The notes beneath the pieces were generated by a model that was not told where the DNA came from, made no database searches, and worked only from the letters and a program-made list of their open reading frames with translations. This document shows, piece by piece, positions 11,404 to 45,606 of a stretch of 60,644 nt of DNA. Made by a program: the position numbers and the translations under genes. This DNA comes from Halobacteriota archaeon (lineage in GTDB: Archaea; Halobacteriota; Syntropharchaeia; Alkanophagales; Methanospirareceae), in contig JBAQFZ010000142.1 in assembly GCA_049287525.1 (NCBI GenBank), positions 1-60,644 of the forward strand, given 5' to 3'. Each line of letters starts with the position of its first letter. Position 1 is the stretch's first letter.

Positions 11404-11424
11404 CTCGTATCCATCCGGAGGGGG

Positions 11425-11440: not shown

Positions 11441-11498
11441 TTCAAATAAAGATTCTTATTTATTACCAGAAAAATTTTGGTTAGGGAGGATAAAAATC

Positions 11499-11927: not shown

Positions 11928-11960
11928 TAAAATGGCGTCTTCGTCTTGATGATGGAGTTG

Positions 11961-13699: not shown

Positions 13700-14692
13700 A
13701 TGATCATAAAAGAATCCTTCGAGAAGGCGATGACGGATAAGCGAACTTTGGTAGTGATAGTGATTGTAGCGATTTTATGGCGCACTTTCATAAGTCTTAA
13801 TAAAGTGATTACTCTTCGGGAAAGTTTGTGCTCAGGTATTGTTCTTATCATATTTGGCTGGGTTCTCTTCGCTTACTTGTATCACTTGTTCACGCATCTT
13901 AAGGGCTGGGTAATCTCGAATTGGATTTGCCAGGGGATTGCCGTCAGCATGATCTCTATAAACATTTACGTTCTTATATACTACGGCATGAGATGGCTAA
14001 GATTACTATATGAAGAAGCTTATCAGCCCTGGGATTTCCTCTTCCGGGACATAAGGTATATTGCTTTAGTGGTGTTTTATTGCGGAATACTATGGTCGGC
14101 GAAGTATGTGAAGAAGGTTAATGAAGATTATATATCGCTGGCTAAAGAGAAGGCGCTTCTCCACATCATATCCACATATTTATACCCGAAGGTTAGAAAG
14201 CTGAGAGAAATGAGCATGAGAGAATTATTATGGACAGTGCTAACCGATGAACGAATACTATTAATAATGGTAGGCCTATCGTTTTTATGGCGACTGGTAA
14301 TAAGCATTGACCTCACCATAACCCTAAAGGAAAGCGTGTTTTCTGGGATGATACTTTTCATGGTAGGCTGGCTTTTTTTCGCTTACGTCTGGTCAATGTC
14401 ATGGAAACAAAAAGAGTGGTTAGACCTGATGAGAGTAAACCATGGTATTGCCATTGGGGTATTTGCCATAAACATTTATGTTCTTGTTTACTATGGAATG
14501 AGATGGTATCGAATGAGCATGGGCGCGGAAGTTTTTGTGCCACTGGATTTCCTCTTCCGTGATGCAAGATTCTTCGCGCTTGTGATATTCTACTGTGCAT
14601 CAATCGTGCTATCGAAGTTCATAAAAAGAGCATATGAGGAATATACGTTGTTATCCGCGTCTGCGGAAGCGAAGGAGCAGAGAGAGCAATAG
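13700..14692 (+). CDS. Internally duplicated polytopic membrane protein (2 x about 165 aa, about 8 TM helices), uncharacterised
   Basis: The two halves align clearly: ...LWRTFISLNKVITLRESLCSGIVLIIFGWVLFAY...INIYVLIYYGMRW...DFLFRDIRY against ...LWRLVISIDLTITLKESVFSGMILFMVGWLFFAY...INIYVLVYYGMRW...DFLFRDARF. Confidence 0.6.
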   Translation: MIIKESFEKAMTDKRTLVVIVIVAILWRTFISLNKVITLRESLCSGIVLIIFGWVLFAYLYHLFTHLKGWVISNWICQGIAVSMISINIYVLIYYGMRWLRLLYEEAYQPWDFLFRDIRYIALVVFYCGILWSAKYVKKVNEDYISLAKEKALLHIISTYLYPKVRKLREMSMRELLWTVLTDERILLIMVGLSFLWRLVISIDLTITLKESVFSGMILFMVGWLFFAYVWSMSWKQKEWLDLMRVNHGIAIGVFAINIYVLVYYGMRWYRMSMGAEVFVPLDFLFRDARFFALVIFYCASIVLSKFIKRAYEEYTLLSASAEAKEQREQ

Positions 14693-14695
14693 TAT

Positions 14696-15073
14696 ATGCA
14701 GAGGAAATTATCACATTCTGTGAGGATAAGATATTTCGATAAGAAGTTAGTGGAAGAATCGCTCAGTGGCTATCTGAAAGAGATAGAGAGGAAACATCCA
14801 GAAGTAGAGCGTGTGCTCCTCTTCGGCTCTTTTGTTCGGAATGAATGCGTGCCGGGAAGTGATATAGATTTGCTTATGATATTGAAAGAGTCAGAAGAGT
14901 CCTTCTTGAAAAGGATACCGCGCTTTTTACCTTCTCGGTTCCCGGTAGGGGTGGATGTATTTCCTTATACAGAGACGGAGGTGGAAAAGATGAAAGACGA
15001 AGGGAATTTCTTCATAAAGAAAGTATTAGAAGAAGGAGTGGAGGTTTTTCGTAAAAAGCGAAGAATAGGATAA
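14696..15073 (+). CDS. Minimal nucleotidyltransferase (MNT/Pol-beta superfamily) domain protein
   Basis: GS-x10-DxD motif within LLFGSFVRNECVPGSDIDLLMIL. Starts 3 nt after the preceding gene. No HEPN partner is adjacent. Confidence 0.75.
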   Translation: MQRKLSHSVRIRYFDKKLVEESLSGYLKEIERKHPEVERVLLFGSFVRNECVPGSDIDLLMILKESEESFLKRIPRFLPSRFPVGVDVFPYTETEVEKMKDEGNFFIKKVLEEGVEVFRKKRRIG

Positions 15074-15127: not shown

Positions 15128-16519
15128 TCATACAAAAGCGGTGAGCTTTAATTTAAGAGCTTCTTCCGTGATGATATTCTCCAGGCAATGTAATTTGGTA
15201 TCAGGGCGATTACAATAAAAGATGACACCCCGATCGAGCACAGTCATCTTAAAGTAATTTGTTACCATATGACCCAGCTCTGTGCCCAATACGCCCCCGG
15301 CAGGCATTGAAAATACTCCCACATTTTCCGCCTCCCTCATCTCCATTATCCAGTATGAGAATAGCTCTGCCATTCTCTCAAGGTTGCCCGGCGTTTTCAA
15401 CCGATAGTGATACTCCAGCAGATCCGTTCCGATGATAATCACGACCGGAGGCTCTAAATTGGAGATGAACTCTGTGAATATTGTAAAATCTTCCTCCATT
15501 GATTCGCCGTTCAAAACTTTCACGTTCTCTCTTACCTCTTTCTTCTCCTTCCTTATCTCAAAGATGGTGAAATACTTCAGATAATCCTCTCCCTTCACGA
15601 AGGGCAATATCCCCCTCCTTAACCTCCGCTCATCCCAACCACTACTCGGAATCTTCACAACATGAATCCCTTGTTGTATGCTGTTTATAATCATGTGCGC
15701 GATGATAGAATGGTATCCTAAGAGGGATAAATCATCTCCATATTCCACAATATGGGTGCTTCCCTTAGCCATCCCCCCTCCTAAAATCGTATCTATCCCC
15801 TCACATCCCGTGGATATGTATATAGCAGTATTTGGCACAACCTCAACTCTTCTCTCCTTCTCTATTTTCCGCCTCTGGAAAGGAGCGAAATAACGGAATC
15901 TGCCACCGTCTAAGGTAAACCCATATTTATGCTGGTCTATTCTGACGCCTCTGAGCTTCTTTAATACCAGTTCCCTCGCCCGCCGGTAATCTATGGTTAT
16001 CCGGCTTAGCTCCGCTATTCCGTCTACCATATAATCGAGCGGAGTAGTGCCAGCTGTTTCTGATATGAGTATCAAATTCATTTTGAATTCCGTTGCATAA
16101 CTCCTTATCAGGTCAGTTATCGCATCTTCCAGCACTTCCCGCTTCTCCTCCTTTCCACCTCCTATTATCGCCTCCCAGCTATCAATGACGAGTGTGGCGG
16201 GCTTCTCTGCCTCTACCAATTTAGTGTAAAGAATATCTGAGAAGGACCGTGGTCTTAGAAACGCTTTTGATGAGATATACAACTTCGTTGCATCTACCAC
16301 GCTAAAGCCGGGACGTTCTTCCAGCCATGGAAATTGGTTATAAAGAGCGGGGAGTGAGACTCGCGCTGAAAGATATACCGCATTCTCGCCCCCGAACTCG
16401 TCGAGCATCTCGAAGGCGAGCATCGTCTTCCCCGTTCCCGGCTCCCCCTTTATCAGCAGCGAATACCCAATACCCGCTGACAACGCCGCTCTCAATTCAG
16501 GTGGTATTTTGCTATTCAT
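15128..16519 (-). CDS. KaiC/RecA-superfamily (GvpD-like) two-domain ATPase; the second domain lacks a P-loop
   Basis: The N-domain has Walker A GEPGTGKT and Walker B ATLVIDSWE. The C-domain keeps the KaiC-like entry ISTGCEGIDTILGGGMAKGS but reads HIVEYGDDLS where a P-loop is expected. Confidence 0.75.
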   Translation of the reverse strand: MNSKIPPELRAALSAGIGYSLLIKGEPGTGKTMLAFEMLDEFGGENAVYLSARVSLPALYNQFPWLEERPGFSVVDATKLYISSKAFLRPRSFSDILYTKLVEAEKPATLVIDSWEAIIGGGKEEKREVLEDAITDLIRSYATEFKMNLILISETAGTTPLDYMVDGIAELSRITIDYRRARELVLKKLRGVRIDQHKYGFTLDGGRFRYFAPFQRRKIEKERRVEVVPNTAIYISTGCEGIDTILGGGMAKGSTHIVEYGDDLSLLGYHSIIAHMIINSIQQGIHVVKIPSSGWDERRLRRGILPFVKGEDYLKYFTIFEIRKEKKEVRENVKVLNGESMEEDFTIFTEFISNLEPPVVIIIGTDLLEYHYRLKTPGNLERMAELFSYWIMEMREAENVGVFSMPAGGVLGTELGHMVTNYFKMTVLDRGVIFYCNRPDTKLHCLENIITEEALKLKLTAFV

Positions 16520-16560: not shown

Positions 16561-16827
16561 TCACGGTGGGAAAAGCTCTTCACGATAGAGGATAACCACT
16601 CTGAGTGCGTAAAAGAATATATACGCCATCACACAGAGAAGAACGAATAGCACACCCATGAAAAGACCGAAATAATAGCCTAAATTCTCCACTTCTACTT
16701 CAGGGCAAGTTTCCTTTATTAATTCCAGTGTCTCAGGGTCACATGAACCAAAATTACGCATGAGGCTAATGACGCACCCCGGGCATTTAATAAAACATTT
16801 CACCGCACTGCTGAATTTTCCCCCCAT
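16561..16827 (-). CDS. Small Cys-rich tail-anchored membrane protein (88 aa)
   Basis: The N-terminal soluble part contains five Cys (CFIKCPGC...SC...TC). One C-terminal TM helix (FGLFMGVLFVLLCVMAYIFFYAL). Confidence 0.45.
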   Translation of the reverse strand: MGGKFSSAVKCFIKCPGCVISLMRNFGSCDPETLELIKETCPEVEVENLGYYFGLFMGVLFVLLCVMAYIFFYALRVVILYREELFPP

Positions 16828-16831: not shown

Positions 16832-16931
16832 TTTTACCTCTTTTTATTTTTTCTTTGGTACTTTTAAAAGAAAGGTTTTTTACCTCTTTTACTTTTTTCT
16901 TTGGTAAAGCTTTCTTTTTTAAAGAAAGGTT
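16832..16931. repeat. Tandem direct repeat, 2 units of about 46 and 54 bp, each ending in an A/T hairpin
   Basis: TTTTACCTCTTTTTATTTTTTCTTTGGTACTTTTAAAAGAAAGGTT is followed by TTTTACCTCTTTTACTTTTTTCTTTGGTAAAGCTTTCTTTTTTAAAGAAAGGTT. Confidence 0.7.
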
Positions 16932-18439
16932 TATAATAATCCTATCACAGAGTGAAGAAGTTCCATGAGTGGTTCAGGATACAGACCTATGATGAAAGAT
17001 ATAACTGCCAGGAAGAGAAGAGGAACGGTCATCGTTAATGGAGGGTCCCTGATCCTGGTATCATTTGCTAAAGCCGGCTTCAAGGGACCAAAGAAGATCC
17101 GCTTCGCAGCCCAGAATGCGTAGACACCCGTTAATATAGTTGAGAGGATTCCCAGACTTGCAATTACCAGTCCGACGTAAGTTGGATTTGAACCGAAAAT
17201 GCCGGTAAACAGTATCCATTTTCCCGTAAACCCACTTGTGAGAGGAACACCGGTGAGTATTGCTGCGGCTGCGATCCAGAGCGTAGCGGCTATTGGCATC
17301 TTACGTATAAGTCCGCCCATCTCTCTCATATCCCTGATTCCCGTTACGTAAACTACTATACCAGCAGTTGAGAAGAGAATGCCTTTACCCAGGATGTGAC
17401 TCAGGAAGTAAAACATGCCACCTTCAATACTCCAGATGGTGAGTGCTCCCAGCCCAAGAACAGAGTATGAGATCTGACCGATAGTTGAGCACGCACAGAG
17501 TCGCTTCACGTCAGTTTGAGCCAGTGTGAGAAGAGCGCCATATACTATCGTTATCATTGCCATTATCATAATAGGTATGCTGAACACTTTGAGATCATTA
17601 TAGAGTGGTAAGATGAGAACCCTTACAATTACATAGGCTCCTATATTCGCATAAATCGCAAGCAATCCAGCTATGCATGTGGGATGTTCTGCGTGAACCC
17701 ATGGCATCCAAACATGAAGTGGAAATATTGCAAGCTTAGTAGATACACCGAGAAGGATAAGTAATGCAATCCAGAAAGTCATGGGATTCCCTGCAAGAGT
17801 ATGCAACTGCGAAATCTCGAAGGTTCCTATCTGAGAATAAACTAACACAGAGCCAAATAAGATGAAGGTCCCTCCAACAATTCCCCATAGGAAACACATC
17901 ATGGCGACTCGAAAGCGCTCTATATACCCAAAGAAACTCATTATGAAGTAAAGGGGAATAACCATTAATTCTATAAAGAGATATATTACTATGAGGTTTG
18001 TAGCAAAGCAAATACCGATGAAAGCTGCGGGAAAGAGGAGGTATAGCCAGAAATATGTGGTGTAATACGAAAGTTGTGTCTTTTCATCCTCTTCTCCGTA
18101 TATTATATCTATTCTGTGTTCCACATAGTGTATTGAGAAGAATGCAAGAGCAACGCATATCATATTTATTATCAACGAAACCGGAAGACTCAAACCATCA
18201 GCTAAGAGACCAAAGCTCACATTTGGTCCCCATACATATTCCTCGACAATTTTTGCCTTTTCTCCTATACCCTGATAAACGTTGATGCCCGCAATTAAGA
18301 GAAGAGCTGTCGTGTAGAGCAGGATTATACAGGGTATAAATCGCGCTTTTCTTCCTATTTTGCGCCTGGTTACAAGTATGAACATGGAGGCTATAACTGG
18401 CGCCACTACTATTTGGAGTAGAATATAAGGCATCATCAT
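16931..18439 (-). CDS. NuoM/MrpD-type antiporter subunit
   Basis: About 14 TM helices with Proton_antipo_M-type motifs (KLAIFPLHVWMPWVHAEHP, KRLCACSTIGQ). Overlaps the upstream gene by 4 nt. Confidence 0.85.
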   Translation of the reverse strand: MMMPYILLQIVVAPVIASMFILVTRRKIGRKARFIPCIILLYTTALLLIAGINVYQGIGEKAKIVEEYVWGPNVSFGLLADGLSLPVSLIINMICVALAFFSIHYVEHRIDIIYGEEDEKTQLSYYTTYFWLYLLFPAAFIGICFATNLIVIYLFIELMVIPLYFIMSFFGYIERFRVAMMCFLWGIVGGTFILFGSVLVYSQIGTFEISQLHTLAGNPMTFWIALLILLGVSTKLAIFPLHVWMPWVHAEHPTCIAGLLAIYANIGAYVIVRVLILPLYNDLKVFSIPIMIMAMITIVYGALLTLAQTDVKRLCACSTIGQISYSVLGLGALTIWSIEGGMFYFLSHILGKGILFSTAGIVVYVTGIRDMREMGGLIRKMPIAATLWIAAAAILTGVPLTSGFTGKWILFTGIFGSNPTYVGLVIASLGILSTILTGVYAFWAAKRIFFGPLKPALANDTRIRDPPLTMTVPLLFLAVISFIIGLYPEPLMELLHSVIGLL

Positions 18440-20256
18440 CGCATCACCACCATAAATAGTATATAGAGGAGAAGGAGTAGCATAGCAAGAAGTATGTATA
18501 TTATATTAAACGACAACTCTCTACTTTTACTTTTCCTTATTTTGTTATGAATCTGTTCGAAGTTGAGGAGAGTAGGAATTCCCACGTGAAACGCTTTATC
18601 CAGTGGATTCTCAGCATACTTAACTACGAGAGAGAGAAAACGATTAACGAAGAAACCCGCCATCTTCATTACATTCCGGTCAATGAAACTCGCGAACGTC
18701 ATTAACGGTTTTTCACAGAACCATATAACCCTCTTCCCCGGTATTCGATAGAACCAGTCAGTGTCAAGCGTAATTGTTGGTGTACCATGAAGCATTGCCC
18801 TTAAAAACCAAAACGCTACAAAGGTGAACAGAAGGAGCTGACTCATTCCTACCACATGCCCGAGTGCATAAGGTTCATAATTAACGGGATATGGGAGTAT
18901 GTCGTACAGTATTTTTGGATATACCCCGAGCAGGGTGCACAAAAATGCAGTGATACCCATTCCGACAAGCATATTCTTAGGCGGCTCCCGTGCCTCGCAT
19001 GCCGGCTCCTCTCTTGCAAACCAGACACCCCACGGAAGTTTTAGACCCGTGTGCAGGAAAGTTCCTATTGAGGCACCTTCCAGAAGCAGCCAGACAATCG
19101 GCTGATGCCACATCCCGGCGGAAAAGACAACCATTGTCTTACTCACGAATCCATTGAAAAGAGGAAAGCCTGAAATGGAAAATGCACCAATCATATAAAG
19201 CCAAAAAGTGATTGGCATGTATTTATAGATACCACCCAGTTCGGTCAGCTTGTTCCGTCCCGTCACCTCCAGCACGGCGCCCATACCCATGAAAAGGAGC
19301 GCTTTGTAAAGGATATGGCAGAAGGCATGGGCAGCCGCACCATTTATCGCCATTTCGCCAGCCGCAGTGCCAAAAACGCCCAGTCCCACACCACACACCA
19401 TATAGCCCACCTGGGAGATGATGTGGTATGCGAGAAGTCTCCTTATATCATTCTCAAGCACTGCATAAACCACTCCATACATCGCCATGATTGCTCCCAA
19501 CCACATCAGAAGCTCAACACCCGGAAAGCCTCTTATCAGCACGTATATCGCACTCTTCGTGGTAAACGCAGTTAAAAACACCGCTCCAGTAACCGTCGCT
19601 TCTGGATAGGCATCTGCCAGCCATGCACCTAGAGGTGGGACGGCAGCGTTTATGATAAATGCGAGAAAGATAAGATAAGAACCCAGATATTCACTCCCCA
19701 ACCCCCATTCAAAACTTTCAAAAGCAATAGAACCCGTAGCTTGCAGATGTAACACGATCCCGCCTAATAGACAGATACCGCCAAACATGTGCACCATAAT
19801 AAACCGGAATCCCGCACCGTATGCCGCCTTCGTCTTACGATACCAGATTAAGAGCATGGATGACCATGCCATCACTTCCCAGAAGAAGAATAAAGTAAAG
19901 AGGTCGCCTGCAAAGACCACGCCCAGCGTGCTTCCAACGTAGATGAAAGCGGCTAAATGCTGCCCCGTCTCTTTTACATGGAGTGCATAAATCGTCATGC
20001 AGAAGGAGGCAATCACGAATACATATGCGAAGACCATGCTCAGCCTGTCCACTCTCCCGAGAGTAAGGCCGTATCCCATGAAGGAAAACTGCCAGAAAGG
20101 ACCACTTCCGAATACGCCCTTTGATATGAGCATGAGCTCCGTGAACGCTACTGCGGGCAGCAGAAGCAAATACACCTGTCTCCATTTGCCCTTTAACAGT
20201 GGTATCAAAAGAGCACCTAAGAGAAATATAAGTCCTGGATGCAACCACGCAATCAC
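18436..20256 (-). CDS. NuoL/MrpA-like long antiporter subunit (606 aa) with a C-terminal amphipathic extension and terminal TM anchor
   Basis: Antiporter core (AAVPPLGAWLADAYPEA, RRLLAYHIISQVGY). It is followed by a mostly non-TM segment of about 100 aa and a final TM helix (IIYILLAMLLLLLYILFMVV), as in the NuoL lateral helix. Confidence 0.8.
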   Translation of the reverse strand: MIAWLHPGLIFLLGALLIPLLKGKWRQVYLLLLPAVAFTELMLISKGVFGSGPFWQFSFMGYGLTLGRVDRLSMVFAYVFVIASFCMTIYALHVKETGQHLAAFIYVGSTLGVVFAGDLFTLFFFWEVMAWSSMLLIWYRKTKAAYGAGFRFIMVHMFGGICLLGGIVLHLQATGSIAFESFEWGLGSEYLGSYLIFLAFIINAAVPPLGAWLADAYPEATVTGAVFLTAFTTKSAIYVLIRGFPGVELLMWLGAIMAMYGVVYAVLENDIRRLLAYHIISQVGYMVCGVGLGVFGTAAGEMAINGAAAHAFCHILYKALLFMGMGAVLEVTGRNKLTELGGIYKYMPITFWLYMIGAFSISGFPLFNGFVSKTMVVFSAGMWHQPIVWLLLEGASIGTFLHTGLKLPWGVWFAREEPACEAREPPKNMLVGMGITAFLCTLLGVYPKILYDILPYPVNYEPYALGHVVGMSQLLLFTFVAFWFLRAMLHGTPTITLDTDWFYRIPGKRVIWFCEKPLMTFASFIDRNVMKMAGFFVNRFLSLVVKYAENPLDKAFHVGIPTLLNFEQIHNKIRKSKSRELSFNIIYILLAMLLLLLYILFMVVMR

Positions 20257-20262
20257 TACCGA

Positions 20263-20499
20263 TCACCTCTTCTCATAATAATCCTCCTCCTTCTGAAGCC
20301 AATGATGTCCAAGTGCTTTCGACGCAACGATGATGACTACACACCCGACAAACCCATAGAGAGCGCTGAAAACTGGTAATTCCTCCCACACGAAATGGGG
20401 ATGAACAAGGTGGAAATGATGAACGATAAAGCCTGCTAAGACACCAGCCGTAAGACATACATAAAGCATCAAGAACAAATGCCTCATTGTTATTTTCAT
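20263..20499 (-). CDS. Small His-rich 2-TM membrane protein embedded in the antiporter operon
   Basis: 78 aa, sequence HHFHLVHPHFVWEE between two hydrophobic helices. Tightly packed between antiporter genes. Confidence 0.5.
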   Translation of the reverse strand: MKITMRHLFLMLYVCLTAGVLAGFIVHHFHLVHPHFVWEELPVFSALYGFVGCVVIIVASKALGHHWLQKEEDYYEKR

Positions 20500-20502
20500 T
20501 TT

Positions 20503-22062
20503 TTAGACACCACCACCTACTAAACCTGCAACCGCGATTTTGGCAAGCTCCAATATATAAAATGTGTTCGGGAACAAACAGAATATGATGGAGATAATTG
20601 CCGTTAAGGTCAGGGGGACGAGCATGAAAAGCGGTGCTTCTTTTATCTCTGCCTTTTCACTCTTACTCCCGCTATCAGTCAACTCTTTGGGTTTACCAAA
20701 GAACGCAGTAAAGATGATGGGGAAGAAATAAACGATGTCGAGCAGGGAACTTATCAAGAGGACAGCTAAAAAAACCAGCTCTCCCGCTTCAACTGTGCCC
20801 AGGCAAAGATACCACTTACTTATAAATCCTGAAACTGGAGGGATACCGCTCATTCCAAGCGCGCCTACCGTAAATGCCAGCATCGTTACCGGCATTGTTC
20901 GTCCTATGCCCGCCATCTCGCTTATGTTCTTCTTTCCCGTAGCCACCAATATGGAGCCGGCGCAGAGAAAGAGGGTTATCTTCATGAACCCGTGAAAAGG
21001 TATGTGAATCATTGCCCCGGTTACACCCTTAGGGCCCAATAGCGCAACGCCAAAGATGATATAAGATAACTGGCTTATCGTAGAATATGCAAGCCTTCTC
21101 TTCAGGTTGTCCTGAGCAATGGCAAACAAAGAAGCGACGATCATCGTAAAAGACGCTAGAGCTGCGAGTATTAGCCCCAGTCCAAGTGCACCCATCAAAT
21201 CCACACCATAGATGTAACACACGATTCTAACTACTACGAATACCCCGGCTTTTACCACTGCTACGGCATGCAAAAGCGCACTCACCGGCGTTGGTGCCGC
21301 CATTGCCGTTGGCAGCCAACTGTGGAAAGGCATCCATGCCGCCTTCATGGAGCCCAACATGAATAACGCAAATAACAACATCAATGTCAAGCGTGATGCG
21401 GAATCAAGCGTTAATATACCTCCGTTCACAAAATCAGTCGTCCCAGTAAGGTAAAACGTTAACACGATTGCAACAAAGAAACACCAACCCGAAGTGAGCA
21501 AATAAGCTAAGTATTTACGACCCGCAAATCGTGCTTCCCGTGCCTTCTCAGATTCCTCTTCCTTGTGTCCCCATTCGGCTAACCCATCGTGAGCCACCAA
21601 CGGATACGTTGAGATCGTTAATGCCTCGTAGAAGAAGTACAGTGTGATCAGGTTCTTGGACATTGCTATGCCTACCGCACCGAAAATGGCCAGTGCGAAA
21701 CAGGCAAAGTATCGCGTTTGGGCGTGCTCGTGCAACGACCTCATATATCCGATGGAGTAGGAGGATACCAGAATCCAGAGGAAAGAAGAAGTAATCGCAA
21801 AAATAAGACCAAACGCATCTACTTTGAATATGAACTCAAGTCCAGTAAATATAGTGAAAAGGTGGCATTCGATTACATTTCCTGCTATAACCATCGGTGC
21901 CATAGAAAAGATAATCAAGAACTGTATTATGCTGGCGAACATCGTGCAGCTCTCCCTTATGTTCGGCCGCTTTCTAAATAGCAATATGAGAAAAGCGCAG
22001 ATAAAAGGAGATGAAATTGCTAACAACGGGCTTATGGATCCTACTACGTTCATCTCATCCAC
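20503..22062 (-). CDS. MrpD/NuoN-type antiporter subunit
   Basis: Multi-TM protein with motifs MKAAWMPFHSWLPTAMAAPTPVSALLHA and KRRLAYSTISQL. Overlaps the upstream gene by 8 nt. Confidence 0.85.
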   Translation of the reverse strand: MDEMNVVGSISPLLAISSPFICAFLILLFRKRPNIRESCTMFASIIQFLIIFSMAPMVIAGNVIECHLFTIFTGLEFIFKVDAFGLIFAITSSFLWILVSSYSIGYMRSLHEHAQTRYFACFALAIFGAVGIAMSKNLITLYFFYEALTISTYPLVAHDGLAEWGHKEEESEKAREARFAGRKYLAYLLTSGWCFFVAIVLTFYLTGTTDFVNGGILTLDSASRLTLMLLFALFMLGSMKAAWMPFHSWLPTAMAAPTPVSALLHAVAVVKAGVFVVVRIVCYIYGVDLMGALGLGLILAALASFTMIVASLFAIAQDNLKRRLAYSTISQLSYIIFGVALLGPKGVTGAMIHIPFHGFMKITLFLCAGSILVATGKKNISEMAGIGRTMPVTMLAFTVGALGMSGIPPVSGFISKWYLCLGTVEAGELVFLAVLLISSLLDIVYFFPIIFTAFFGKPKELTDSGSKSEKAEIKEAPLFMLVPLTLTAIISIIFCLFPNTFYILELAKIAVAGLVGGGV

Positions 22063-23593
22063 CTCCTAAAATTGCAAGTGCCGCTCTTATTGATAATCTA
22101 ATGAGAGGAATGGGGAAGAATAAACCGCCTATTACGCAGATGAGTGCAAAAACAACAACTGAGAATACCATTGAAGAGGGTGCCTCGTGTGTCCGAACCG
22201 CTCCACTCTCTATCATTAAAACCTTTGCTACTTTGATATAATACGTAGCAGCGTATATAACATTAAATAAGAGAAGGATAAAAGTCGCAATTATCACAAA
22301 TCCTCCAACAGACTGAATTGCCATTGCCACGGACATTATTATCAGGATTTTACTCCAAAAACCAAGTAAAGGCGGCAAGCCTAATAAAGAAAGCAAGCCT
22401 ACCGACATTGAATAACCTGTTAAAGGCATGTCCCGTCCAATGCCGCCCATTTTCGCAAGCTCCTTTGTATGGATACGATAATGAATGTTACCAGAACCAA
22501 GGAATGCCAGCGCTTTACCCATACCATGACTAAAGATATGTAGTAATGCGCCAGCCATAGCTAAAGAAGCCTCTTCTGGAATTGCCTCTGATGGTTCCGC
22601 TACTTTCGATAGAATATAAGCGGCAACTCCTGCTCCTGTGGCTATAATACCCAGGTTGACAATGCTTGAGTAAGCAAGAAGTCTTTTCAAGTCCTTTTGG
22701 AAGTAAGCAAATAAGTTTCCCACTGTCATTGACAGAAGACCAAGGATGAGCAACACCAGTCCATAATTGTAGTATAAAGGGAATATTGTAAAAAGCAACC
22801 TAATTAACGCATAGAGTCCTACCATTATCACGATCCCACTCAGCATGGCTGAGATTGGGCTGGGCGCAGATGAGTGTGCATCCGGTAACCATGTATGAAA
22901 AGGGAAGAGAGCCATTTTTATGCTCAATCCAATGAGGATGAACACAAAAGCTGTTTGAACCATTCTATTACCATATAAGGGAGAGAGCAAAATCCTCAAG
23001 TCTCCCATATTCAGCGAGCCGGTTACTGAATAAAGGAATGCCACACCGAGAAGATAGAAGCAAATACCAATGGAGCCCATTATAAGGTAATTATAAGATG
23101 CTCGTAATGCCCTTCCACCCGCACTTGCTATTAATGCATATGCAGTCAGGGCTGCTACCTCGTAAAGAACATACATGTTGAAGACATCACCAGTTAGAAC
23201 AACACCGCAAAGCCCTGCAACCATTAGTTGTAAAAGTGTATAGAAGGTTACACGCTTCCTTTCTTCTATATCATGCTCTATACCCCTCTTTGAATGTATT
23301 CCAGCCATTAAACCTAAGAAAAGAACTATAACCAAAATGTAGGCATTCAGTTCATTTATAACATACTCAATACCCCAGGGCGGTCTCCATCCTCCTAACC
23401 AGTAACGGATTGTTCCCACGGTAAGGACGTGATACAAGATAAAAAATGACATAATTAGATGTGAGAAGATGGTTGCGAGAAAGATATAGAAGCATGATTT
23501 CCTCTTCACCAAGCCAGCGAGCAGAATAGTGTAGCTCGCAAACACACCTGTAGTAACAATAAGCACTGGGAACTGTTCAACTACACTTAGCAT
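22055..23593 (-). CDS. mrpD: MrpD-type antiporter subunit, paralog P2 (mosaic: P1/P3-like N-half, divergent C-half)
   Basis: The N-terminal 240 aa or so are near-identical to P1 and P3. After ...PDAHSSAPSPISAMLSGI the sequence diverges strongly. Confidence 0.85.
   Translation of the reverse strand: MLSVVEQFPVLIVTTGVFASYTILLAGLVKRKSCFYIFLATIFSHLIMSFFILYHVLTVGTIRYWLGGWRPPWGIEYVINELNAYILVIVLFLGLMAGIHSKRGIEHDIEERKRVTFYTLLQLMVAGLCGVVLTGDVFNMYVLYEVAALTAYALIASAGGRALRASYNYLIMGSIGICFYLLGVAFLYSVTGSLNMGDLRILLSPLYGNRMVQTAFVFILIGLSIKMALFPFHTWLPDAHSSAPSPISAMLSGIVIMVGLYALIRLLFTIFPLYYNYGLVLLILGLLSMTVGNLFAYFQKDLKRLLAYSSIVNLGIIATGAGVAAYILSKVAEPSEAIPEEASLAMAGALLHIFSHGMGKALAFLGSGNIHYRIHTKELAKMGGIGRDMPLTGYSMSVGLLSLLGLPPLLGFWSKILIIMSVAMAIQSVGGFVIIATFILLLFNVIYAATYYIKVAKVLMIESGAVRTHEAPSSMVFSVVVFALICVIGGLFFPIPLIRLSIRAALAILGGG
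22859..23593. repeat. Copy 2 of the mrpD 5'-half repeat
   Basis: See 12761-13496. Confidence 0.75.
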
Positions 23594-23703
23594 CCGCTTT
23601 ATTCATCTCCGCTCCTTTTCACGGGACATACGTGACACAAATATTTGGAATAAAGCATGAGAAATGCACTATATATAAAAACCTTTCGCTTTTTATCGCC
23701 CGT

Positions 23704-23760
23704 GTTAATTAAGCCCTTTCAGGGCTTGCGGGACGTGGGCAGAGCCCACGAGCGTTAATC
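23704..23760. other. Twin GC-rich hairpins flanked by GTTAAT direct repeats, in the 247-bp gap between mrpD P3 and P2
   Basis: AAGCCCT-ttc-AGGGCTT (23711-23727) and CGTGGGC-aga-GCCCACG (23734-23750), bracketed by GTTAATT and GTTAATC. A minus-strand TATA (TTTTTATATATAG) lies around 23680. Confidence 0.55.
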
Positions 23761-23840
23761 TGTGTCAATAATTTATGCTTTCACTTTATTTTATATCCTC
23801 TGATTTTAAATTATAGGTGGCTGCGGCATCAGTTCTACCG

Positions 23841-25421
23841 TTACGGGGGCAGCACCGCCTCCACTCCTAATTCGGCCATCACATTTTTAATTAAAGGTAA
23901 CGGCGTCTGTGTAAGCCATAAAATGCCTACCACCACACACAGAGATGCAAGGAGTAGCATTGGAAGCAGCATGCTAAGTGGTGCTTCCTTCTCCCGCTCT
24001 CCACCATTCTGCTCTTCCCGCTTTACAAAATACATACGCTCGATTACTCGCCAGAAATAAACGAGGTTAAGAAGACTGCTGAGCAGCAGCACTCCGACGA
24101 ATATGTACGCGGCACTTGAAAAAACTTCGGTAGCCTTTAGAGATGCGTAGATTAAAAACAGCTTTGATACAAATCCCGTGCTCGGGGGAACGCCTATCAT
24201 TGAAAGTGCAGCCAGAGTAAAAGCAGCACTTGCATACGGCATCTTCTTCCCTAACCCTTCAAAATCTCTGATGTCCCACAAGTTATACTTATAAATAAAA
24301 GCACCGGCAGCCAGGAATAGGCATCCCTTCATTATTGCATGATTTGCGAGGTGAGCAAGAGCGCCGAGGAGTCCCCATGAGATCACCACGCTTGATCCTG
24401 ACAGGAATATCTTTGAAATTGAAATTGGAGAAAGACCTATTCCCAGTACGAGATATCCTATCTGCGAGATGCTGGAATAGGCGAGCATCCGCTTTAAATT
24501 ATGCTGCATGATTGCGAGCACTGATCCCGCTATGATTCCAATCGCAGCGAGCCAGCAAATTGCAATCTCCACATACCTGTAACTACTGATGAAATCGAGC
24601 GTGAAGATAGAGTAAATAACCCGTATCAGTGCATATACTGAGACCTTGGACATCGCCGCGGCAATGATCACACTCACTGCGGATGGAGCATAGGTATATG
24701 CGTCAGGCTGCCAGATGTGCAGAGGGAAGAACGCACATTTTATACTCAATCCGATGAGAACGAAGATAAAAGCGGTTTGAACTACTCTATTACCATAGAG
24801 AGGGGGTAGCAAAATCCTTAAGTCACCCATATTCAGCGAGCCGGTTACTGAATAGAGGAACCCTATGCCAAGCAAGTAGAAGCAGATACCAATGGAACCC
24901 AACACCAGGTAATTATATGATGCCCGTAATGCTCTTCCACCTGCACTCGCGATTAATGCGTACGCAGTCAGAGATGCTACTTCAGTAAGAACATACATAT
25001 TGAACATATCACCAGTTACCACGACACCGCAGAGCCCAGCCACAAGTAGCTGGAAAAGTGTATAAAAGGCTACATGCTTTCTTCCCTCGAGCTCGTGCTC
25101 TACACTCCGCTTTGAATAGATCGCTGCTATTAAACTTAATAAAAGAACGATAATCAAAACGTAGGCATTCAATCCATCAACAACATATTCTATACCCCAG
25201 GGCGGTCGCCACCCCCCCAACCAGTAATGGATTGTTCCTATGGTAAGAACGTGGTGCAAGATGAAGAGGGACATAATGAAATGGGAGAAGATGGTTGCGA
25301 GAAAGATATAGAAGCATGATCTCCTGTTCAACAAGCCAGCAAGCAAAATAGTGTAACCAGCAAAGACTCCGGTTGTTACAATAAGCACGGGGAACTGCTC
25401 AACAATCGTTATCATAGCCAC
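23841..25421 (-). CDS. mrpD: MrpD-type antiporter subunit, paralog P3 (last gene of the mrpFGE..BCD operon)
   Basis: Similar to P1 along its whole length. Starts 3 nt after the mrpC-like stop. Confidence 0.85.
   Translation of the reverse strand: MAMITIVEQFPVLIVTTGVFAGYTILLAGLLNRRSCFYIFLATIFSHFIMSLFILHHVLTIGTIHYWLGGWRPPWGIEYVVDGLNAYVLIIVLLLSLIAAIYSKRSVEHELEGRKHVAFYTLFQLLVAGLCGVVVTGDMFNMYVLTEVASLTAYALIASAGGRALRASYNYLVLGSIGICFYLLGIGFLYSVTGSLNMGDLRILLPPLYGNRVVQTAFIFVLIGLSIKCAFFPLHIWQPDAYTYAPSAVSVIIAAAMSKVSVYALIRVIYSIFTLDFISSYRYVEIAICWLAAIGIIAGSVLAIMQHNLKRMLAYSSISQIGYLVLGIGLSPISISKIFLSGSSVVISWGLLGALAHLANHAIMKGCLFLAAGAFIYKYNLWDIRDFEGLGKKMPYASAAFTLAALSMIGVPPSTGFVSKLFLIYASLKATEVFSSAAYIFVGVLLLSSLLNLVYFWRVIERMYFVKREEQNGGEREKEAPLSMLLPMLLLASLCVVVGILWLTQTPLPLIKNVMAELGVEAVLPP
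24681..25412. repeat. Copy 3 of the mrpD 5'-half repeat
   Basis: See 12761-13496. Confidence 0.75.
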
Positions 25422-25423
25422 GT

Positions 25424-25843
25424 TTACCTCTGCTCGTAAAGTTCCAGCTCTTTCGCCATTATCTCATCTTCCTCTATCGTTCCGTATAGTTGATACATCC
25501 TCACGACGAGGGCAAGGGCGACACCGGTTGTTGCGGCACTCACTACGATCCCCGTGAGCATGAGCACATTCGGCAGAGGATTCGCATAGACATATCCTTC
25601 TTCTATTGCCGGTTCCCATAAAATCGGTGGCGTTGCTGTTCTCAGTCCCCAATTCGCTAAGTCCCCCACATCCCCCAGGGATATGTAGAACAGGAAAATA
25701 CCAGTTTGAAATATACTCAGTCCAATGAGTTTCTTTAATAAATTGCCCTTCGCGATCGTTGCGTAAAGACCAATAAGTATGACAAAGATGGCAGTCCAAA
25801 AATTATACTTTGCAAATACCTCCTGAACGAGCCATTCGATCAT
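25424..25843 (-). CDS. mrpC: MrpC/MnhC (NuoK-like) subunit
   Basis: Three TM helices with LIGLSIFQTGIFLFYISLG. The start is placed at MIEWLVQ; the longer ORF to 25909 overlaps mrpB. Confidence 0.8.
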   Translation of the reverse strand: MIEWLVQEVFAKYNFWTAIFVILIGLYATIAKGNLLKKLIGLSIFQTGIFLFYISLGDVGDLANWGLRTATPPILWEPAIEEGYVYANPLPNVLMLTGIVVSAATTGVALALVVRMYQLYGTIEEDEIMAKELELYEQR

Positions 25844-25844
25844 T

Positions 25845-26324
25845 CTATTCGTGCTCACCCCCCTCTTCTTCTTCCTCTTTCCACGCAAGGTCAAAGAACT
25901 GCGAGACAAACGCTGCCATCACGGTTATCCCTATCCCCACGGATACCATGAATGCTAACAAATAACCTCGCGTCGTTGCTATACCTACGAGCTTCGCCAG
26001 CGGCCAAACTGCGGAATAGTTCAGGAACTGCGCAGCACCGAGGCTGAAGATAACTGCCAGGAGACCCGCTCCATTATAGAGATACAATCCAAAGCTCGTA
26101 AAGACGGTATTCCAGGATTCTGGCATCAGCCCCCTGCCTTTATCAGTACCAAAGGCTGTGATATATAAAATAAAAGCACCTGCGAGTATACATCCCCCCT
26201 GGAATCCACCTCCCGTTCCCTCCGTTCCTACCATGACATACATGCCAAATACTAAAATCAAAGGAACCATCAGCTTCGCCGTCGTCTCTATGATGATATC
26301 CCGCTTGTATACTTTAGGATTCAC
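25845..26324 (-). CDS. mrpB: MrpB/MnhB-domain subunit
   Basis: IIETTAKLMVPLILVFGMYV...GGGFQGG is typical of the MnhB domain. Confidence 0.8.
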   Translation of the reverse strand: MNPKVYKRDIIIETTAKLMVPLILVFGMYVMVGTEGTGGGFQGGCILAGAFILYITAFGTDKGRGLMPESWNTVFTSFGLYLYNGAGLLAVIFSLGAAQFLNYSAVWPLAKLVGIATTRGYLLAFMVSVGIGITVMAAFVSQFFDLAWKEEEEEGGEHE

Positions 26325-26896
26325 AGTCTCCCTCGCCTCCTCAACAAGAGTATAACAGATACCGCACCACTGAAGATAACCGTCTCCTCAAACATGGTAT
26401 CATAACCCCGGTAATCAGCAAGACCAGAAGTTACAGCGTTCATGGTAGCCGTCTCTTCTTCGGTCTTCTCTATTACCCTCACCGGCCAATTATACCGGTA
26501 AACCGTCAGATTTCCTTTAACTTCCTTGATGAAGTAATATTTTATAGGTTCTTTAAAGTATATCTCACCCTCATTGATGAGAACATCCCAACCCCCTCCC
26601 TCTGTGGCAAAGACCCCGCTGTTCTTCTCAATCACGTATTCCCCTTCTTCCAGGGTTGGATAGTTGTTCTCCTTATTGAACCCTATACGTTCTATTTCAT
26701 TTTTTATCTCCGCGGGAACAACGCCCTCATCCAAGCTCTCCACCAATAATCCATCAGCATCGATGCTAAAGAGCTTTATATACTTATTTGCAGGTGAATT
26801 GTAATCACCAAAAGCAGGAACATCCTGAACTACGTAAACGAACAGAGCAGCCAGAAGGAGTACCATAATGAGCCCCATTACTGATGTTGGTTTCAT
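26321..26896 (-). CDS. MbhE-like / MrpA-C-terminal-like subunit carrying a large soluble insertion
   Basis: N-terminal TM helix, then the conserved NAVTSGLADYRGYDTMFEETV motif and a C-terminal TM helix. About 100 non-hydrophobic residues are inserted between FGDY and that motif. Confidence 0.6.
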   Translation of the reverse strand: MKPTSVMGLIMVLLLAALFVYVVQDVPAFGDYNSPANKYIKLFSIDADGLLVESLDEGVVPAEIKNEIERIGFNKENNYPTLEEGEYVIEKNSGVFATEGGGWDVLINEGEIYFKEPIKYYFIKEVKGNLTVYRYNWPVRVIEKTEEETATMNAVTSGLADYRGYDTMFEETVIFSGAVSVILLLRRRGRL

Positions 26897-26900
26897 TTAC

Positions 26901-27152
26901 TTACTTCTCCCACCTCGCCTTTCTCGATAATCGTGATAATGCCGCTATCATGAGAGCTGTTGAAGTCCCTGCGCCGACCGCAGCCTCAGTAAACGCGACG
27001 TCAGCCGCCCCGAGCTGCAACCACATGTTTGCCATAATAAAACTGTAAGCGCCAAGGATGACAATCGCAGCTAAAAGGTCTTTTACTGTTATCGCCGCTA
27101 TTGCTGTTACTATTATAAAGGATAGCAGTATGAAATCAATTGGAACTATCAT
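26901..27152 (-). CDS. DUF4040 / MbhD-like (MrpA C-terminal) subunit
   Basis: 83 aa, 3 TM helices. The motif AADVAFTEAAVGAG is typical of DUF4040. Confidence 0.65.
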   Translation of the reverse strand: MIVPIDFILLSFIIVTAIAAITVKDLLAAIVILGAYSFIMANMWLQLGAADVAFTEAAVGAGTSTALMIAALSRLSRKARWEK

Positions 27153-27172
27153 CTCTTTTCCTTTCGCCTCCT

Positions 27173-27733
27173 CTATCCTTCCTCCATGAATACATGTCCC
27201 ACCTTCCTCTGCATGGTTTGATCCACTGTGAGGGCATCTGCTGGCTCCTTCGCTATTGCATGCACGGTATACTTACCTCTTTCAGGTTCAATATCTATTG
27301 TTATCGTCCCCGGCGTCAAGGTAATGGAATCACCAAATGTAGTGAGTGCTAAATCGCTTCGCAGGGTTGTCTCGAATTCTATTATTAGAGGATCTACCGT
27401 CCTGAGACCAAGAACACGATATGCGACGTCAATGGCTGCTAACATGATCTGCCACAACTCCCATGTACTGTAAAGAAGCCACCTCTGGATTTTTAATAGC
27501 ACTTTCTCACCTCTTCCGGGTATTAATAGTTCGTGTACGGTAAGAGTAACGACCAGGACGACAATTACACCTCTTGCTAACCTGAAAAGGTCGTAATGCC
27601 CGGTAAGATAAATATTCCAGGCTGACAGGAGCAACCAGAATATAAACATCGCACAAAAGGTTAGAACCATTGAGAACGCCTTTTCGCTTCCTCGCATTCC
27701 TCTTACCCCGTTCATATCTCTCTTCTCCTTCAC
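27173..27733 (-). CDS. mrpE: MrpE/MnhE subunit
   Basis: Two N-terminal TM helices followed by ITLTPGTITIDIE, as in MNHE. The GTG start overlaps the mrpG stop. Confidence 0.7.
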   Translation of the reverse strand: MKEKRDMNGVRGMRGSEKAFSMVLTFCAMFIFWLLLSAWNIYLTGHYDLFRLARGVIVVLVVTLTVHELLIPGRGEKVLLKIQRWLLYSTWELWQIMLAAIDVAYRVLGLRTVDPLIIEFETTLRSDLALTTFGDSITLTPGTITIDIEPERGKYTVHAIAKEPADALTVDQTMQRKVGHVFMEEG

Positions 27734-28206
27734 ATCCTCTGATCGCCCTTCTTCCAGACCTTCACGCCAGTAACATACGCAGCTTTCATTATCGCATGCG
27801 TTGCCGCCGGTCCGGCTAATAAATAGTAAGCCGCTACAAAGAAGAGCTTTATCGTGATAAAACTAAACCCTTCATAAATCATACAACCGACTATTATAAA
27901 AATTTGCCCGAGGGTATCGCACTTTCCCGTTGCGTGTAACCGTGTATAAAAGTCAGGAAATTTCACCAATCCAACTGCTCCAGTTATCATGAAGAATGCT
28001 CCGCCAGCCAGGAATATTATTGATAGAATATCTACGAGGTGTCTCGTGCCCTGCACGATTGCCATGATTAACCCAACGCTGAATATTATACCCGCTATCC
28101 CGATAGAAGCGTCCCGGTATTTCAATATTCCAAACGCAGCAGTTAGCATAGCGAATGCTCCCGCAGCCAGGAATAATATCGCTATAATATCTACTATGGT
28201 GAGCAT
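27730..28206 (-). CDS. mrpG: MrpG/MnhG subunit with a duplicated N-terminal TM segment
   Basis: FPDFYTRLHATGKCDTLG is the MnhG signature. The preceding helix IFLAGGAFFMITGAVGLVKFPD is duplicated upstream as LFLAAGAFAMLTAAFGILKYRD. Confidence 0.75.
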   Translation of the reverse strand: MLTIVDIIAILFLAAGAFAMLTAAFGILKYRDASIGIAGIIFSVGLIMAIVQGTRHLVDILSIIFLAGGAFFMITGAVGLVKFPDFYTRLHATGKCDTLGQIFIIVGCMIYEGFSFITIKLFFVAAYYLLAGPAATHAIMKAAYVTGVKVWKKGDQRM

Positions 28207-28463
28207 AGTTCCCCCCTCTCTAAGTATTTAGCTATGATGATGGTGCCGATAAAACTCAGTACTGCGTACATGAGTGCGATATCGACGAAATGCGGTCGTT
28301 CAAGGATATAGCCCACAACAACTAAGAGCACCATCGCCTTCGTGCCGATTACATTCGCCGCAACAATACGATTGAAGGTTCCGGGTCCAATTATCACCCG
28401 GTAGGTGCTGATCAGTATGGTGGACGCAATTATTATTCCGACGGCGACGAACGGTAGTATCAT
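28194..28463 (-). CDS. mrpF: MrpF/MnhF subunit
   Basis: 89 aa, 3 TM helices, with motifs RVIIGPGTFNRIVAANVIGTK and DIALMYAVLSFIGT. Confidence 0.8.
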   Translation of the reverse strand: MILPFVAVGIIIASTILISTYRVIIGPGTFNRIVAANVIGTKAMVLLVVVGYILERPHFVDIALMYAVLSFIGTIIIAKYLERGELCSP

Positions 28464-28684
28464 ATTTTATATATCAGGAGGAGGCGGTATATAAATACCC
28501 TTCGGATTTTTTCTGTTATTACAGTAAAAAGCAAGCTGTCAGCACATGTTTTTGTAGCGCGGAGGGCACTTGATACCGCGGTATAAAAGCGATTCCAAAG
28601 CGCGATGTAAAGTAAAAGTCGTGGTTTTTTAGTTAAGTTATTAGCACATGCCTATTATTAACGTGGAAGAGGAATAGGATTATT

Positions 28685-45597: not shown

Positions 45598-45606
45598 TGA
45601 AAAGAA

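Follow-up and report, generated by a model that had tools for sequence, protein, structure and literature searches.

Does a membrane-arm gene cluster with five tandem antiporter-like subunits and no redox module encode an unusually large cation/proton antiporter, or does it supply the membrane arm of a respiratory complex that has its peripheral module at another place in the genome? The question is raised by a locus at positions 16931-28463, minus strand, of a 60,644-nucleotide stretch of archaeal DNA (the window; contig JBAQFZ010000142.1 of assembly GCA_049287525.1, from a Halobacteriota archaeon of the Methanospirareceae), for which a first inspection of the sequence, the original prediction, had offered both options. 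The antiporter is the best-supported reading: the product of the locus is probably a Na+ (or K+)/H+ antiporter of the Mrp type (CPA3) that stands alone and belongs to a multi-pump class with a split MrpA. The evidence observed directly consists of gene content, conservation, residue signatures, a mosaic evolution of the pump paralogues and the lack of redox genes. The locus belongs to a widespread, annotated and uncharacterised multi-pump Mrp class, of which the window is a lineage-specific expansion.

The gene order of the original prediction is confirmed by Pfam. The minus strand reads mrpF, mrpG, mrpE, MbhD (DUF4040), a borderline MbhE, MnhB and mrpC, followed by five Proton_antipo_M (PF00361) genes, here called D3, D2, D519, L606 and M502, and every gene that had been called between 16931 and 28463 is present at its position. 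Within each of two gene blocks, neighbours abut or overlap by 4-13 nucleotides, and the sole break lies at 23594-23840. The five cluster pumps are full-length, with PF00361 scores of 142-195 bits, and the sixth family member that had been noticed outside the cluster, the orphan copy X511, is likewise an intact PF00361 gene. The small subunits of an Mrp system are all recognisable: MNHE, MrpF_PhaF and PhaG_MnhG exceed their cut-offs, and the MrpB-domain and MrpC parts are matched by MnhB, MbhD and Oxidored_q2, with MbhE just below its cut-off (26.7 bits; Pfam cut-off, 27 bits). The identity of MbhE is backed by NCBIfam NF009159 (E = 1.8e-18) and by synteny. In terms of known homologies, MbhD plus MbhE correspond to MrpA-C, MrpC to NuoK, MrpD to NuoM/N and MrpA-N to NuoL (Steiner and Sazanov, PMC7419157).

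The window proteins were mapped onto related loci (numbered from L001), of which a scan of one genome per species gave 32 and which came to ~50 in all. In clusters with the order F-G-E, from both Bacteria and Archaea, MbhE has ~180 amino acids and carries an insertion of ~100 residues, predicted to be non-membrane, between its N-terminal transmembrane (TM) helix and its conserved C-terminal one; in the E-F-G-order clusters L033 and L035 it has 91-94 amino acids and no insertion. The open reading frame (ORF) of mrpC reaches a TTG at 25909, matches in related loci start at its residues 22-24, and the most likely start, judged from these alignments, is the ATG at 25843 (139 amino acids) rather than the TTG. 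The first TM segment of MrpG is duplicated N-terminally, residues 4-31 aligning to 57-84, and among the examined loci this extension is common only to the window and L013.

The redox side gave a negative answer. No gene for a NuoH/MbhM-like anchor, for NuoB, NuoC, NuoD or NuoI or for a hydrogenase was found among the window ORFs of at least 120 amino acids, and none for NuoH/B/C/D/I or a hydrogenase beside the ~50 related loci of Bacteria and Archaea, whose flanks were scanned or had precomputed Pfam annotation. The anchor and redox subunits that Group 4 [NiFe]-hydrogenases, MBH, MBS and complex I-like enzymes encode together with the arm are thus missing. The earlier statement that the window holds no NiFe, Fe-S or flavin subunit stands for complex I and hydrogenase modules, and fails in its general form: unrelated cofactor enzymes are present, namely a MetF-like methylenetetrahydrofolate reductase (MTHFR), a radical-SAM MqnC-like gene and a ParA/NUBPL-type ATPase. 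The genes flanking the related loci vary by taxon and include TrkH/TrkA, Memo-AMMECR1, EF-G, Usp, the electron-transfer flavoprotein:quinone oxidoreductase ETF-QO, a histidine kinase, a LacI-family regulator, malate dehydrogenase and fumarase; the neighbours that are conserved in Deltaproteobacteria are TrkAH, genes for K+ transport. Both the missing anchor and redox genes and the changing flanks speak against the respiratory-arm option.

A different neighbourhood was seen at L038 (2988-11512; GCA_017883965.1, JAFNKG010000005.1; same contig region as L037), which comes from a related genome of the anaerobic methanotrophic archaea ANME-1. Here FrhB-like (F420-binding) and HdrA-like (flavin adenine dinucleotide/Fe-S) genes lie directly upstream of a pump triad made of an X511-type subunit, a 696-amino-acid NuoL-like subunit (L696) and a NuoM-like subunit (M503), without Mrp small subunits. 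Judged by its neighbours, this triad may be a redox-linked arm.

Nor is the arrangement the singular oddity that it had first seemed. Clusters of the same design with three pumps (11 genes) or four pumps (12 genes) are widespread and annotated as Mrp. The conserved 11-gene unit comprises mrpF-G-E, MbhD, MbhE (~180 amino acids), MnhB, mrpC, an X511-type D gene, a D519-type gene, a small gene named s78 and an L606-type gene; its hosts are Deltaproteobacteria/Syntrophaceae (L008, L010, L011, L016, L022, L023, L032), NC10 (L006), Archaeoglobaceae (L017) and several lineages of ANME-1. The 12-gene form with a NuoM-like end occurs in Desulfobacterales (L033, L034) and Nitrospinota (L035, L036), in the bacterial order mrpE-F-G-MbhD-MbhE-MnhB-mrpC-D-D-(80 aa)-L(589-615 aa)-M(501-503 aa), where aa stands for amino acids. 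An M502-type gene follows the L subunit in L001-L005 and L037 as well as in the bacterial L033-L036. The subunits are routinely annotated as "multicomponent Na+:H+ antiporter subunit D" or "NADH-quinone oxidoreductase subunit M", and a literature search for three- or four-pump Mrp systems or for Mrp in ANME-1 returned generic mentions only and no characterised three- or four-pump Mrp.

Proteins of the L606, D519 and X511 families are 64-76% identical between ANME-1 (the window, L001-L005) and Deltaproteobacteria/Syntrophaceae/NC10 (L006-L011), and in a rough neighbour-joining tree a bacterial clade is sister to the ANME-1 clade of the window. Identities and tree together point to a recent inter-domain transfer of the whole cluster.

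The idea that this might be a standard Mrp arrangement in related genomes therefore holds in part: the three- and four-pump forms are common, and lineage-specific are only the fifth pump, an extra MrpD paralogue (D3) with a putative internal promoter, and the orphan sixth copy. The closest genomic relatives of the window are metagenome-assembled genomes of ANME-1 (Methanophagales), in which L606 has 93% (L001) or 87% identity (L002 and L003). Clean four-pump relatives (L003, L037) have the order F-G-E-MbhD-MbhE-B-C-D2-D519-s78-L606-M502, and compared with them the window has, between mrpC and D2, an insertion of D3 and of a gap with a putative promoter. In L039, whose small-subunit module is the most similar to that of the window (81-98% identity), D2 directly follows mrpC and D3 is absent. 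L013 (ANME-1-THS, from a different study) has C-D3-gap as in the window, then X511; its D3 orthologue (4823-6388) is split into two ORFs (162 + 315 amino acids) by a frameshift, as a pseudogene or through a sequencing error. L002 has six pumps in a row, and its order includes C-D3'-D519'-gap-D2. Arms that lack small subunits occur on other ANME-1 contigs, as D3-D519 beside a divergent L606' and as X511 (or D2)-L700-M503, and the contig covered by L037 and L038 holds eight PF00361 genes within ~40 kb. Such varied arms and copy numbers show that pump-gene copy number is highly plastic in ANME-1.

What kinds of pump does the cluster contain? D2 finds its best PDB matches in MbhH (213 bits), MbsH (190) and MrpD (154); D3 and X511 also match MbhH and MrpD best, and by homology all three are MrpD/MbhH-type subunits. 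D519 is closest to NdhF, MbhH, NuoL and MrpA in the PDB and scores 614 bits on NF006236 (cut-off, 663), and M502 scores 254 bits on the NuoM model TIGR01972 (cut-off, 264). L606 exceeds the NCBIfam equivalog NF009310 (PRK12668, "Na+/H+ antiporter subunit D") with 683.8 bits against a cut-off of 564, its residues 1-597 covering profile positions 3-581 of 584; its best PDB sequence match is MrpA (6z16_A), and it also resembles MbsH'. The lateral-helix-like extension that had been suspected in this subunit is borne out by an AlphaFold2 model, which has a 14-TM core, TM15 (465-489), a long helix (501-548, continuing to ~575) and TM16 (581-604), with a predicted local distance difference test score of 82 overall and below 60 beyond residue 490, so that the tail is of low confidence. 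A Foldseek search with this model ranks MrpA first, followed by NuoL/NdhF, over more than 620 aligned columns. The cluster therefore has both the MrpD-type pump and the MrpA-N-type pump with lateral helix and TM16 of an Mrp system.

Residue signatures were read from an alignment of 94 homologues from the window and related loci. All six large window subunits retain the TM5 Glu, the TM11 His/Lys and the TM12 Lys; across the alignment the TM12 Lys is found throughout and the TM5 Glu in all except one small outlying group. In the L606 family, Asn replaces the TM7 Lys in 34/34 members aligned at that column. The TM8 Lys is replaced by Glu in the X511 group (15/15 orthologues), by Met in the D2 group (7/7 orthologues) and by Asn in the M502 group (7/7). 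The D519 group has the complete NuoL-type residue set including the TM8 His (22/22), and D3 of the window has the full canonical set (TM5 E, TM7 K, TM8 K, TM12 K) within a mostly canonical group. A signature that is fixed for each paralogue group across Bacteria and Archaea implies purifying selection and argues against decay; since all six large subunits are intact and carry the key residues, none is a pseudogene, as the original prediction had allowed for. Checked against the charged residues of MrpA-N, L606 has the TM5 Glu and the TM12 Lys, with Asn at TM7, and the adjacent D519 has the full set. The classical role of MrpA-N appears, on these residues, to be divided between D519 as a catalytically complete core and L606 as the helix-bearing subunit without the TM7 Lys.

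The length of the lateral helix can be compared among clusters. The L606 tail that follows the DxDWxYR motif has 106-109 amino acids in four- to six-pump clusters, compared with 116-120 in three-pump clusters. As the tail is no longer where more pumps are present, the helix has not been extended for extra pumps; its size fits the spanning of two neighbours, as in NuoL, with no adaptation to span more. L606 thus lacks the lengthened L-subunit helix with which 2M-type complexes span their added pump.

Between D519 and L606 lies s78, which the original prediction had described as a His-rich membrane protein. It has eight His and two predicted TM helices; only ~1-3 of the His are conserved in orthologues. 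The protein has no Pfam or NCBIfam match. In all the bacterial and archaeal clusters its gene directly precedes the L606-type gene; the protein has the conserved motif H.HF.W..P.F.A.YGF.GC...SKA.G...EDYYEK and matches 417 representative sequence clusters at E <= 1e-3. On this conservation, s78 is best seen as a subunit of this Mrp class that has no name so far.

The three MrpD-type genes have a mosaic history. Within the window, D3, D2 and X511 share 80-82% identity over their first ~240 residues (73-92% in the ~750 nucleotides of DNA), whereas beyond about residue 240 the range for D2 is 28-38% (~30% to D3 and 38% to X511), and D3 and X511 share ~60%. The N-terminal halves group by genome lineage, window/L013/L039 against L002/L003/L037/L038, and the C-terminal halves group by paralogue type across genomes (D2 79-88%, X511 66-82%, D3 60-77%). 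This is the signature of concerted evolution (gene conversion) limited to the N-terminal half. In structures of complex I and Mrp, a pump turns its N-terminal repeat (TM4-8, with the TM5 Glu and TM7 Lys) toward the proximal neighbour and its C-terminal repeat (with the TM12 Lys) toward the distal one. With this orientation, D3, D2 and X511 would share the interface toward MrpC/MbhD-E and differ toward the next pump. D3 and X511 are recent paralogues of the proximal pump. X511 is 64-70% identical to the first D gene of bacterial clusters and, by this similarity, is the orthologue of the first pump in the bacterial and archaeal three-pump core.

Two simpler accounts of the mosaic were rejected. 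D2 might have been an assembly chimera of an X511 N-terminal half and a D2 C-terminal half; the independent contig L039 carries the same allele, and exact repeats do not exceed 36 nucleotides. A plain fusion of two clusters, with mrpF to mrpC plus D3 from an L013-type source and D2 to M502 from an L001-type source, fits less well than recombination among the D paralogues.

The break between D3 and D2 is exactly 247 base pairs long, as had been noted, and the hairpins and TATA box ascribed to it are present. It contains two perfect local hairpins, GTGGGC-TCT-GCCCAC and AAGCCCT-GAA-AGGGCTT, then a TTTTTATATATA/TTTATATA box ~75 nucleotides upstream of the ATG of D2. The fold of the whole gap as RNA is not better than that of shuffled sequences (z = -0.93), and only the two local hairpins stand out. 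TATA boxes like this one precede the D2/X511-type genes in L002 and, in the window, mrpF and X511. A 40-nucleotide hairpin element of the gap (window 23710-23747, minus strand) recurs in L001 (6323-6362, 92% identity) and L012 (1721-1763), and intergenic copies of the double-hairpin element on other ANME-1 contigs are 84-92% identical to it, a distribution that suggests a small, dispersed palindromic repeat. Scans of the window with Rfam and for tRNAs gave no matches.

From these features we infer, for this locus, antiport activity, ion specificity, stoichiometry, subunit order and the interchangeability of subunits. MrpE/F/G, MnhB, MrpC and MbhD/MbhE would form the cation module. An MrpD-type pump would dock on this module, followed by D519 as the MrpA-N/NuoL-type core and then by s78 and L606, whose lateral helix would reach back over the two preceding pumps and clamp D519 and D. 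The simplest reading of the arrangement would be [E,F,G,B / MbhD/E,C] - D - D519 - L606, with M502 appended or peripheral. Such a complex would import several H+ per Na+ exported, and more proton channels per cation site would mean a higher H+/Na+ ratio. The ratio of Mrp systems is thought to be ~2 and is not established (PMC7419157). With a high ratio, a small proton motive force would suffice for a low-energy marine anaerobe to drive Na+ out against a steep gradient, and the same energetic logic fits the other hosts, namely syntrophs, sulfate reducers, NC10 and Nitrospinota.

Several observations weigh against this reading. L606 lacks the TM7 Lys, which is essential in MrpA and NuoL, and D2, M502 and X511 each lack the central TM8 Lys; to judge by these residues, not every subunit need be a canonical proton channel, and the H+/Na+ ratio may differ from the pump count. 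The reading does not account for the position of M502, since the lateral helix is no longer when M502 is present. The homogenised N-terminal halves could result from neutral gene conversion instead of a shared docking site. The exact order C-D3-gap-D2 occurs only in the window, next to C-D3-gap-X511 in L013 and C-D3'-D519'-gap-D2 in L002. Finally, in one related genome (L038) FrhB/HdrA-like genes stand directly upstream of a satellite pump triad.

How do five pumps fit into one antiporter? Because D3, D2 and X511 share their proximal half, have separate putative promoters and come with a helix of unchanged length, they may be alternatives at one docking site rather than pumps in series, an interpretation that we put forward tentatively. 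That all five cluster pumps work in series in one giant antiporter (C-D3-D2-D519-L606-M502), with a still higher H+/Na+ ratio, seems unlikely to us. The five genes are indeed intact, co-oriented and adjacent, L002 has six pumps in a row, and the addition of a pump has a precedent in 2M complex I (PMC6606698). Against this, the L606 tail of the larger clusters is, if anything, shorter, whereas 2M complex I has a lengthened NuoL; the proximal half of D2 is the same as that of D3 and X511, so D2 looks built for docking on MrpC and not on another D; D3 and D2 are separated by an internal putative promoter and hairpins; and in L039 D2 comes straight after mrpC. Nothing shows all five pumps in one complex, and the shared proximal half and unlengthened helix would fit interchangeable subunits at least as well. 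It is possible, if doubtful, that ANME-1 has one cation (Na+) module and a toolbox of alternative arms, swapped via separate promoters to give an adjustable H+/Na+ "gear ratio". The arms observed are X511-D519-s78-L606, D2-D519-s78-L606-M502, D3-D519 with L606', and D-L700-M503; concerted evolution of the N-terminal halves would, at the same low level of confidence, keep the proximal pumps compatible with the single module, and some arms might be driven instead by cytoplasmic FrhB/HdrA-type modules.

Two further explanations deny the locus this role altogether. The cluster could be the membrane arm of a redox-driven respiratory complex, with the genes of the peripheral module in another part of the genome; several ANME-1 loci do have orphan pump arms without small subunits, L038 has its FrhB- and HdrA-like genes upstream of the X511-L696-M503 triad, and with Mbh and Mbs there are examples of redox-driven Mrp modules (PMC8415708). 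The known redox-coupled relatives keep their redox genes in the same operon, but no NuoH/MbhM-like or NuoB/C/D/I-like gene lies among the window ORFs of at least 120 amino acids or in the examined flanks of the related loci, the window, L002, L014 and L019 have no FrhB/HdrA pair at the corresponding position, and the Deltaproteobacterial clusters keep company with TrkAH, all of which make this explanation very unlikely. We also regard as highly improbable that the extra copies are noise, produced by recent duplication, recombination or a metagenome mis-join, and that only an ordinary three- to four-pump Mrp functions. Recombination or mis-assembly could have started from the ~750 nucleotides shared by the three D paralogues, no other locus examined has exactly this gene order, and D3 is split in L013; yet the longest exact match between D paralogues, 31-36 nucleotides, makes a mis-join within the genome unlikely, the D2 allele is uniformly 76-90% identical to that on the independent contig L039, beside the same type of small-subunit module, C-D3-gap-D recurs in L013 from a different study, and D3 has all catalytic residues and a full-length PF00361 match.

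Among known systems, the stand-alone multi-pump antiporter is closest to Group 3 Mrp, a group defined by irregular gene order and sometimes multiple mrpD genes (PMC5703873, PMC8415708), and the three- and four-pump clusters of this design fall within it. The Group 3 systems of Aphanothece halophytica (mrpCD1D2EFGAB) and Microbacterium sp. TS-1 (mrpFGBCDDAE) are likewise stand-alone, irregular in order and equipped with more than one mrpD (Ito et al. 2017, PMC5703873), and that of Aphanothece has been shown to be a Na+/H+ antiporter (PMC5703873). Unlike them, the present clusters have MrpA split into L606 (TM1-16) and MbhD + MbhE, three to four conserved pump genes (five in the window), a NuoM-like subunit and the conserved 78-amino-acid subunit. 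The locus does not fit the canonical Groups 1 and 2 (mrpABCDEFG or mrpA'CDEFG), whose 6-7 genes run from A to G with a single fused MrpA and a single MrpD: here three genes make up MrpA, the order runs F-G-E and the PF00361 genes number five. All seven functional parts of the Bacillus/Anoxybacillus Mrp (mrpABCDEFG; 6z16, 7qru) are present, A as separate N- and C-terminal parts; in that complex MrpA is fused and the pumps are two (MrpA-N and MrpD), whereas here L606 lacks the TM7 Lys and a separate D519 has the full set.

The stand-alone Mrp of Pyrococcus furiosus (mrpEFGBB'CD; PMC8415708) is, like this locus, archaeal, with Mbh-like small subunits, MbhD/E-type B subunits and no redox module, but it has a single pump (MrpD) and no MrpA-N, whereas the window has five pumps including an MrpA-N-like one with a lateral helix. 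MBH and MBS of Thermococcales (6cfw, 6u8y) have the small-subunit set (MbhA-G equivalents) in common with the locus; their operons also carry MbhM/NuoH-like and MbhJKLN (NuoB/C/D/I-like) subunits, none of which occurs here. With 2M-type complex I (Chadwick et al. 2018, as outlined in PMC6606698) the common idea is an added antiporter-like subunit that allows more protons per cycle in energy-limited organisms; 2M complexes are redox-driven and have a lengthened NuoL, in contrast to a locus without a redox module and with an unlengthened tail.

Coordinates and supporting matches of the features are collected in Table 1. Directly behind the pump arm (downstream of L606 or M502), and in ANME-1 only, lies s88, which is kept in 14 ANME-1-type loci (orthologues in L001-L005, L013, L014, L019, L021, L028, L037, L038 and L042). 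It has conserved Cys, an N-terminal KCF.(K/R)CP.C followed later by a CPE/D Cys, and one TM helix, and the CxxxCxxC spacing could serve to bind a metal or Fe-S cluster. The KaiC-like, nucleotidyltransferase and 330-amino-acid (p330) genes listed in Table 1 are syntenic with pump arms across ANME-1 (L002, L003, L014, L019, L037); the nucleotidyltransferase has a HEPN partner in relatives, and tandem copies occur (four KaiC-like genes in L003, three p330 genes in L019). A search of 10601-12100 for a decayed pump gene downstream of X511 found none, and a 203-amino-acid ORF at 11456-12067 has no homologue in any locus examined and is probably spurious.

The window is archaeal by content, with aTrm56, RtcB, FmdE and PCNA. 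At 44842-46527 (+) and 58355-60514 (+) it has the MetF-like MTHFR with a MetV-like partner, and futalosine-type menaquinone genes (VitK2_biosynth, MqnC/CofH-like radical SAM). The MTHFR and its partner match the proposed Mer-to-MetF switch of ANME-1, and the menaquinone genes are consistent with a quinone-using Fqo.

Table 1. Features of the window around the multi-pump Mrp locus (aa, amino acids)
Feature	Position	Strand	Basis
Putative archaeal promoter of first transcription unit	28464-28520	-	TATTTATATA ~25 nt upstream of mrpF ATG, read from sequence
mrpF (89 aa)	28194-28463	-	Pfam MrpF_PhaF 70 bits; first cluster gene in >25 loci
mrpG (158 aa)	27730-28206	-	Pfam PhaG_MnhG 91 bits, residues 65-144
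mrpE (186 aa)	27173-27733	-	Pfam MNHE 98 bits
MbhD-like/DUF4040 (83 aa), first part of MrpA C-terminal domain	26901-27152	-	Pfam MbhD 71 bits
MbhE-like (191 aa)	26321-26896	-	Pfam MbhE 26.7 bits, residues 141-187 only
mrpB/MbhF-like (159 aa)	25845-26324	-	Pfam MnhB 67 bits
mrpC/NuoK-like (139 aa from ATG)	25424-25843	-	Pfam Oxidored_q2 71 bits
D3, MrpD/MbhH-type pump (526 aa)	23841-25421	-	PF00361 179 bits; NCBIfam NF009305 383 bits, below cut-off
D2, MrpD/MbhH-type pump (512 aa)	22055-23593	-	PDB matches MbhH, MbsH, MrpD
D519, MrpA-N/NuoL-type core without lateral helix (519 aa)	20503-22062	-	PDB and NCBIfam NF006236 matches
s78, small subunit with 2 predicted TM (78 aa)	20263-20499	-	No family assignment; position kept
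L606, MrpA-N/NuoL-like with lateral helix and TM16 (606 aa)	18436-20256	-	NCBIfam NF009310, PDB MrpA
M502, NuoM-like pump (502 aa); start codon overlaps L606 stop	16931-18439	-	TIGR01972
s88, Cys-rich single-TM protein (88 aa), candidate accessory subunit	16561-16827	-	No significant Pfam match
KaiC/GvpD-like ATPase	15128-16519	-	
Nucleotidyltransferase	14696-15073	+	
p330 (330 aa)	13700-14692	+	No Pfam match
X511, orphan MrpD-type pump (511 aa) with own TATA box	11961-13496	-	PF00361 194 bits

What would such an antiporter mean for ANME-1? Most ANME-1 genomes are without Rnf, conserve energy via the H+-translocating Fqo and expend sodium motive force on Mtr, and the main comparative-genomics paper on ANME mentions neither Mrp nor any antiporter (PMC9012536). 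Since Mtr costs sodium motive force, Rnf is mostly absent and energy appears to be conserved as a proton gradient, a Na+/H+ converter is an unstated necessity of current models, and the locus is an obvious candidate for this missing converter. Its Mrp would convert proton motive force into the sodium gradient consumed by reverse Mtr and hold down cytoplasmic Na+ in seawater. The proton cost of each Na+ would be fixed by the number of proton channels, a cost that matters near the thermodynamic limit, and the toolbox of arms, if true, would be a modular ion converter of adjustable stoichiometry central to the energetics of reverse methanogenesis. For the family, the class offers concrete testable features in s78, with at least 417 sequence clusters, and in an MrpA-N split into a D519 core and an L606 without the TM7 Lys. 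A stand-alone Mrp with three to four L/M/N-type subunits and a NuoL-like helix, present in many low-energy anaerobes, would provide a redox-free minimal model for long-range coupling.

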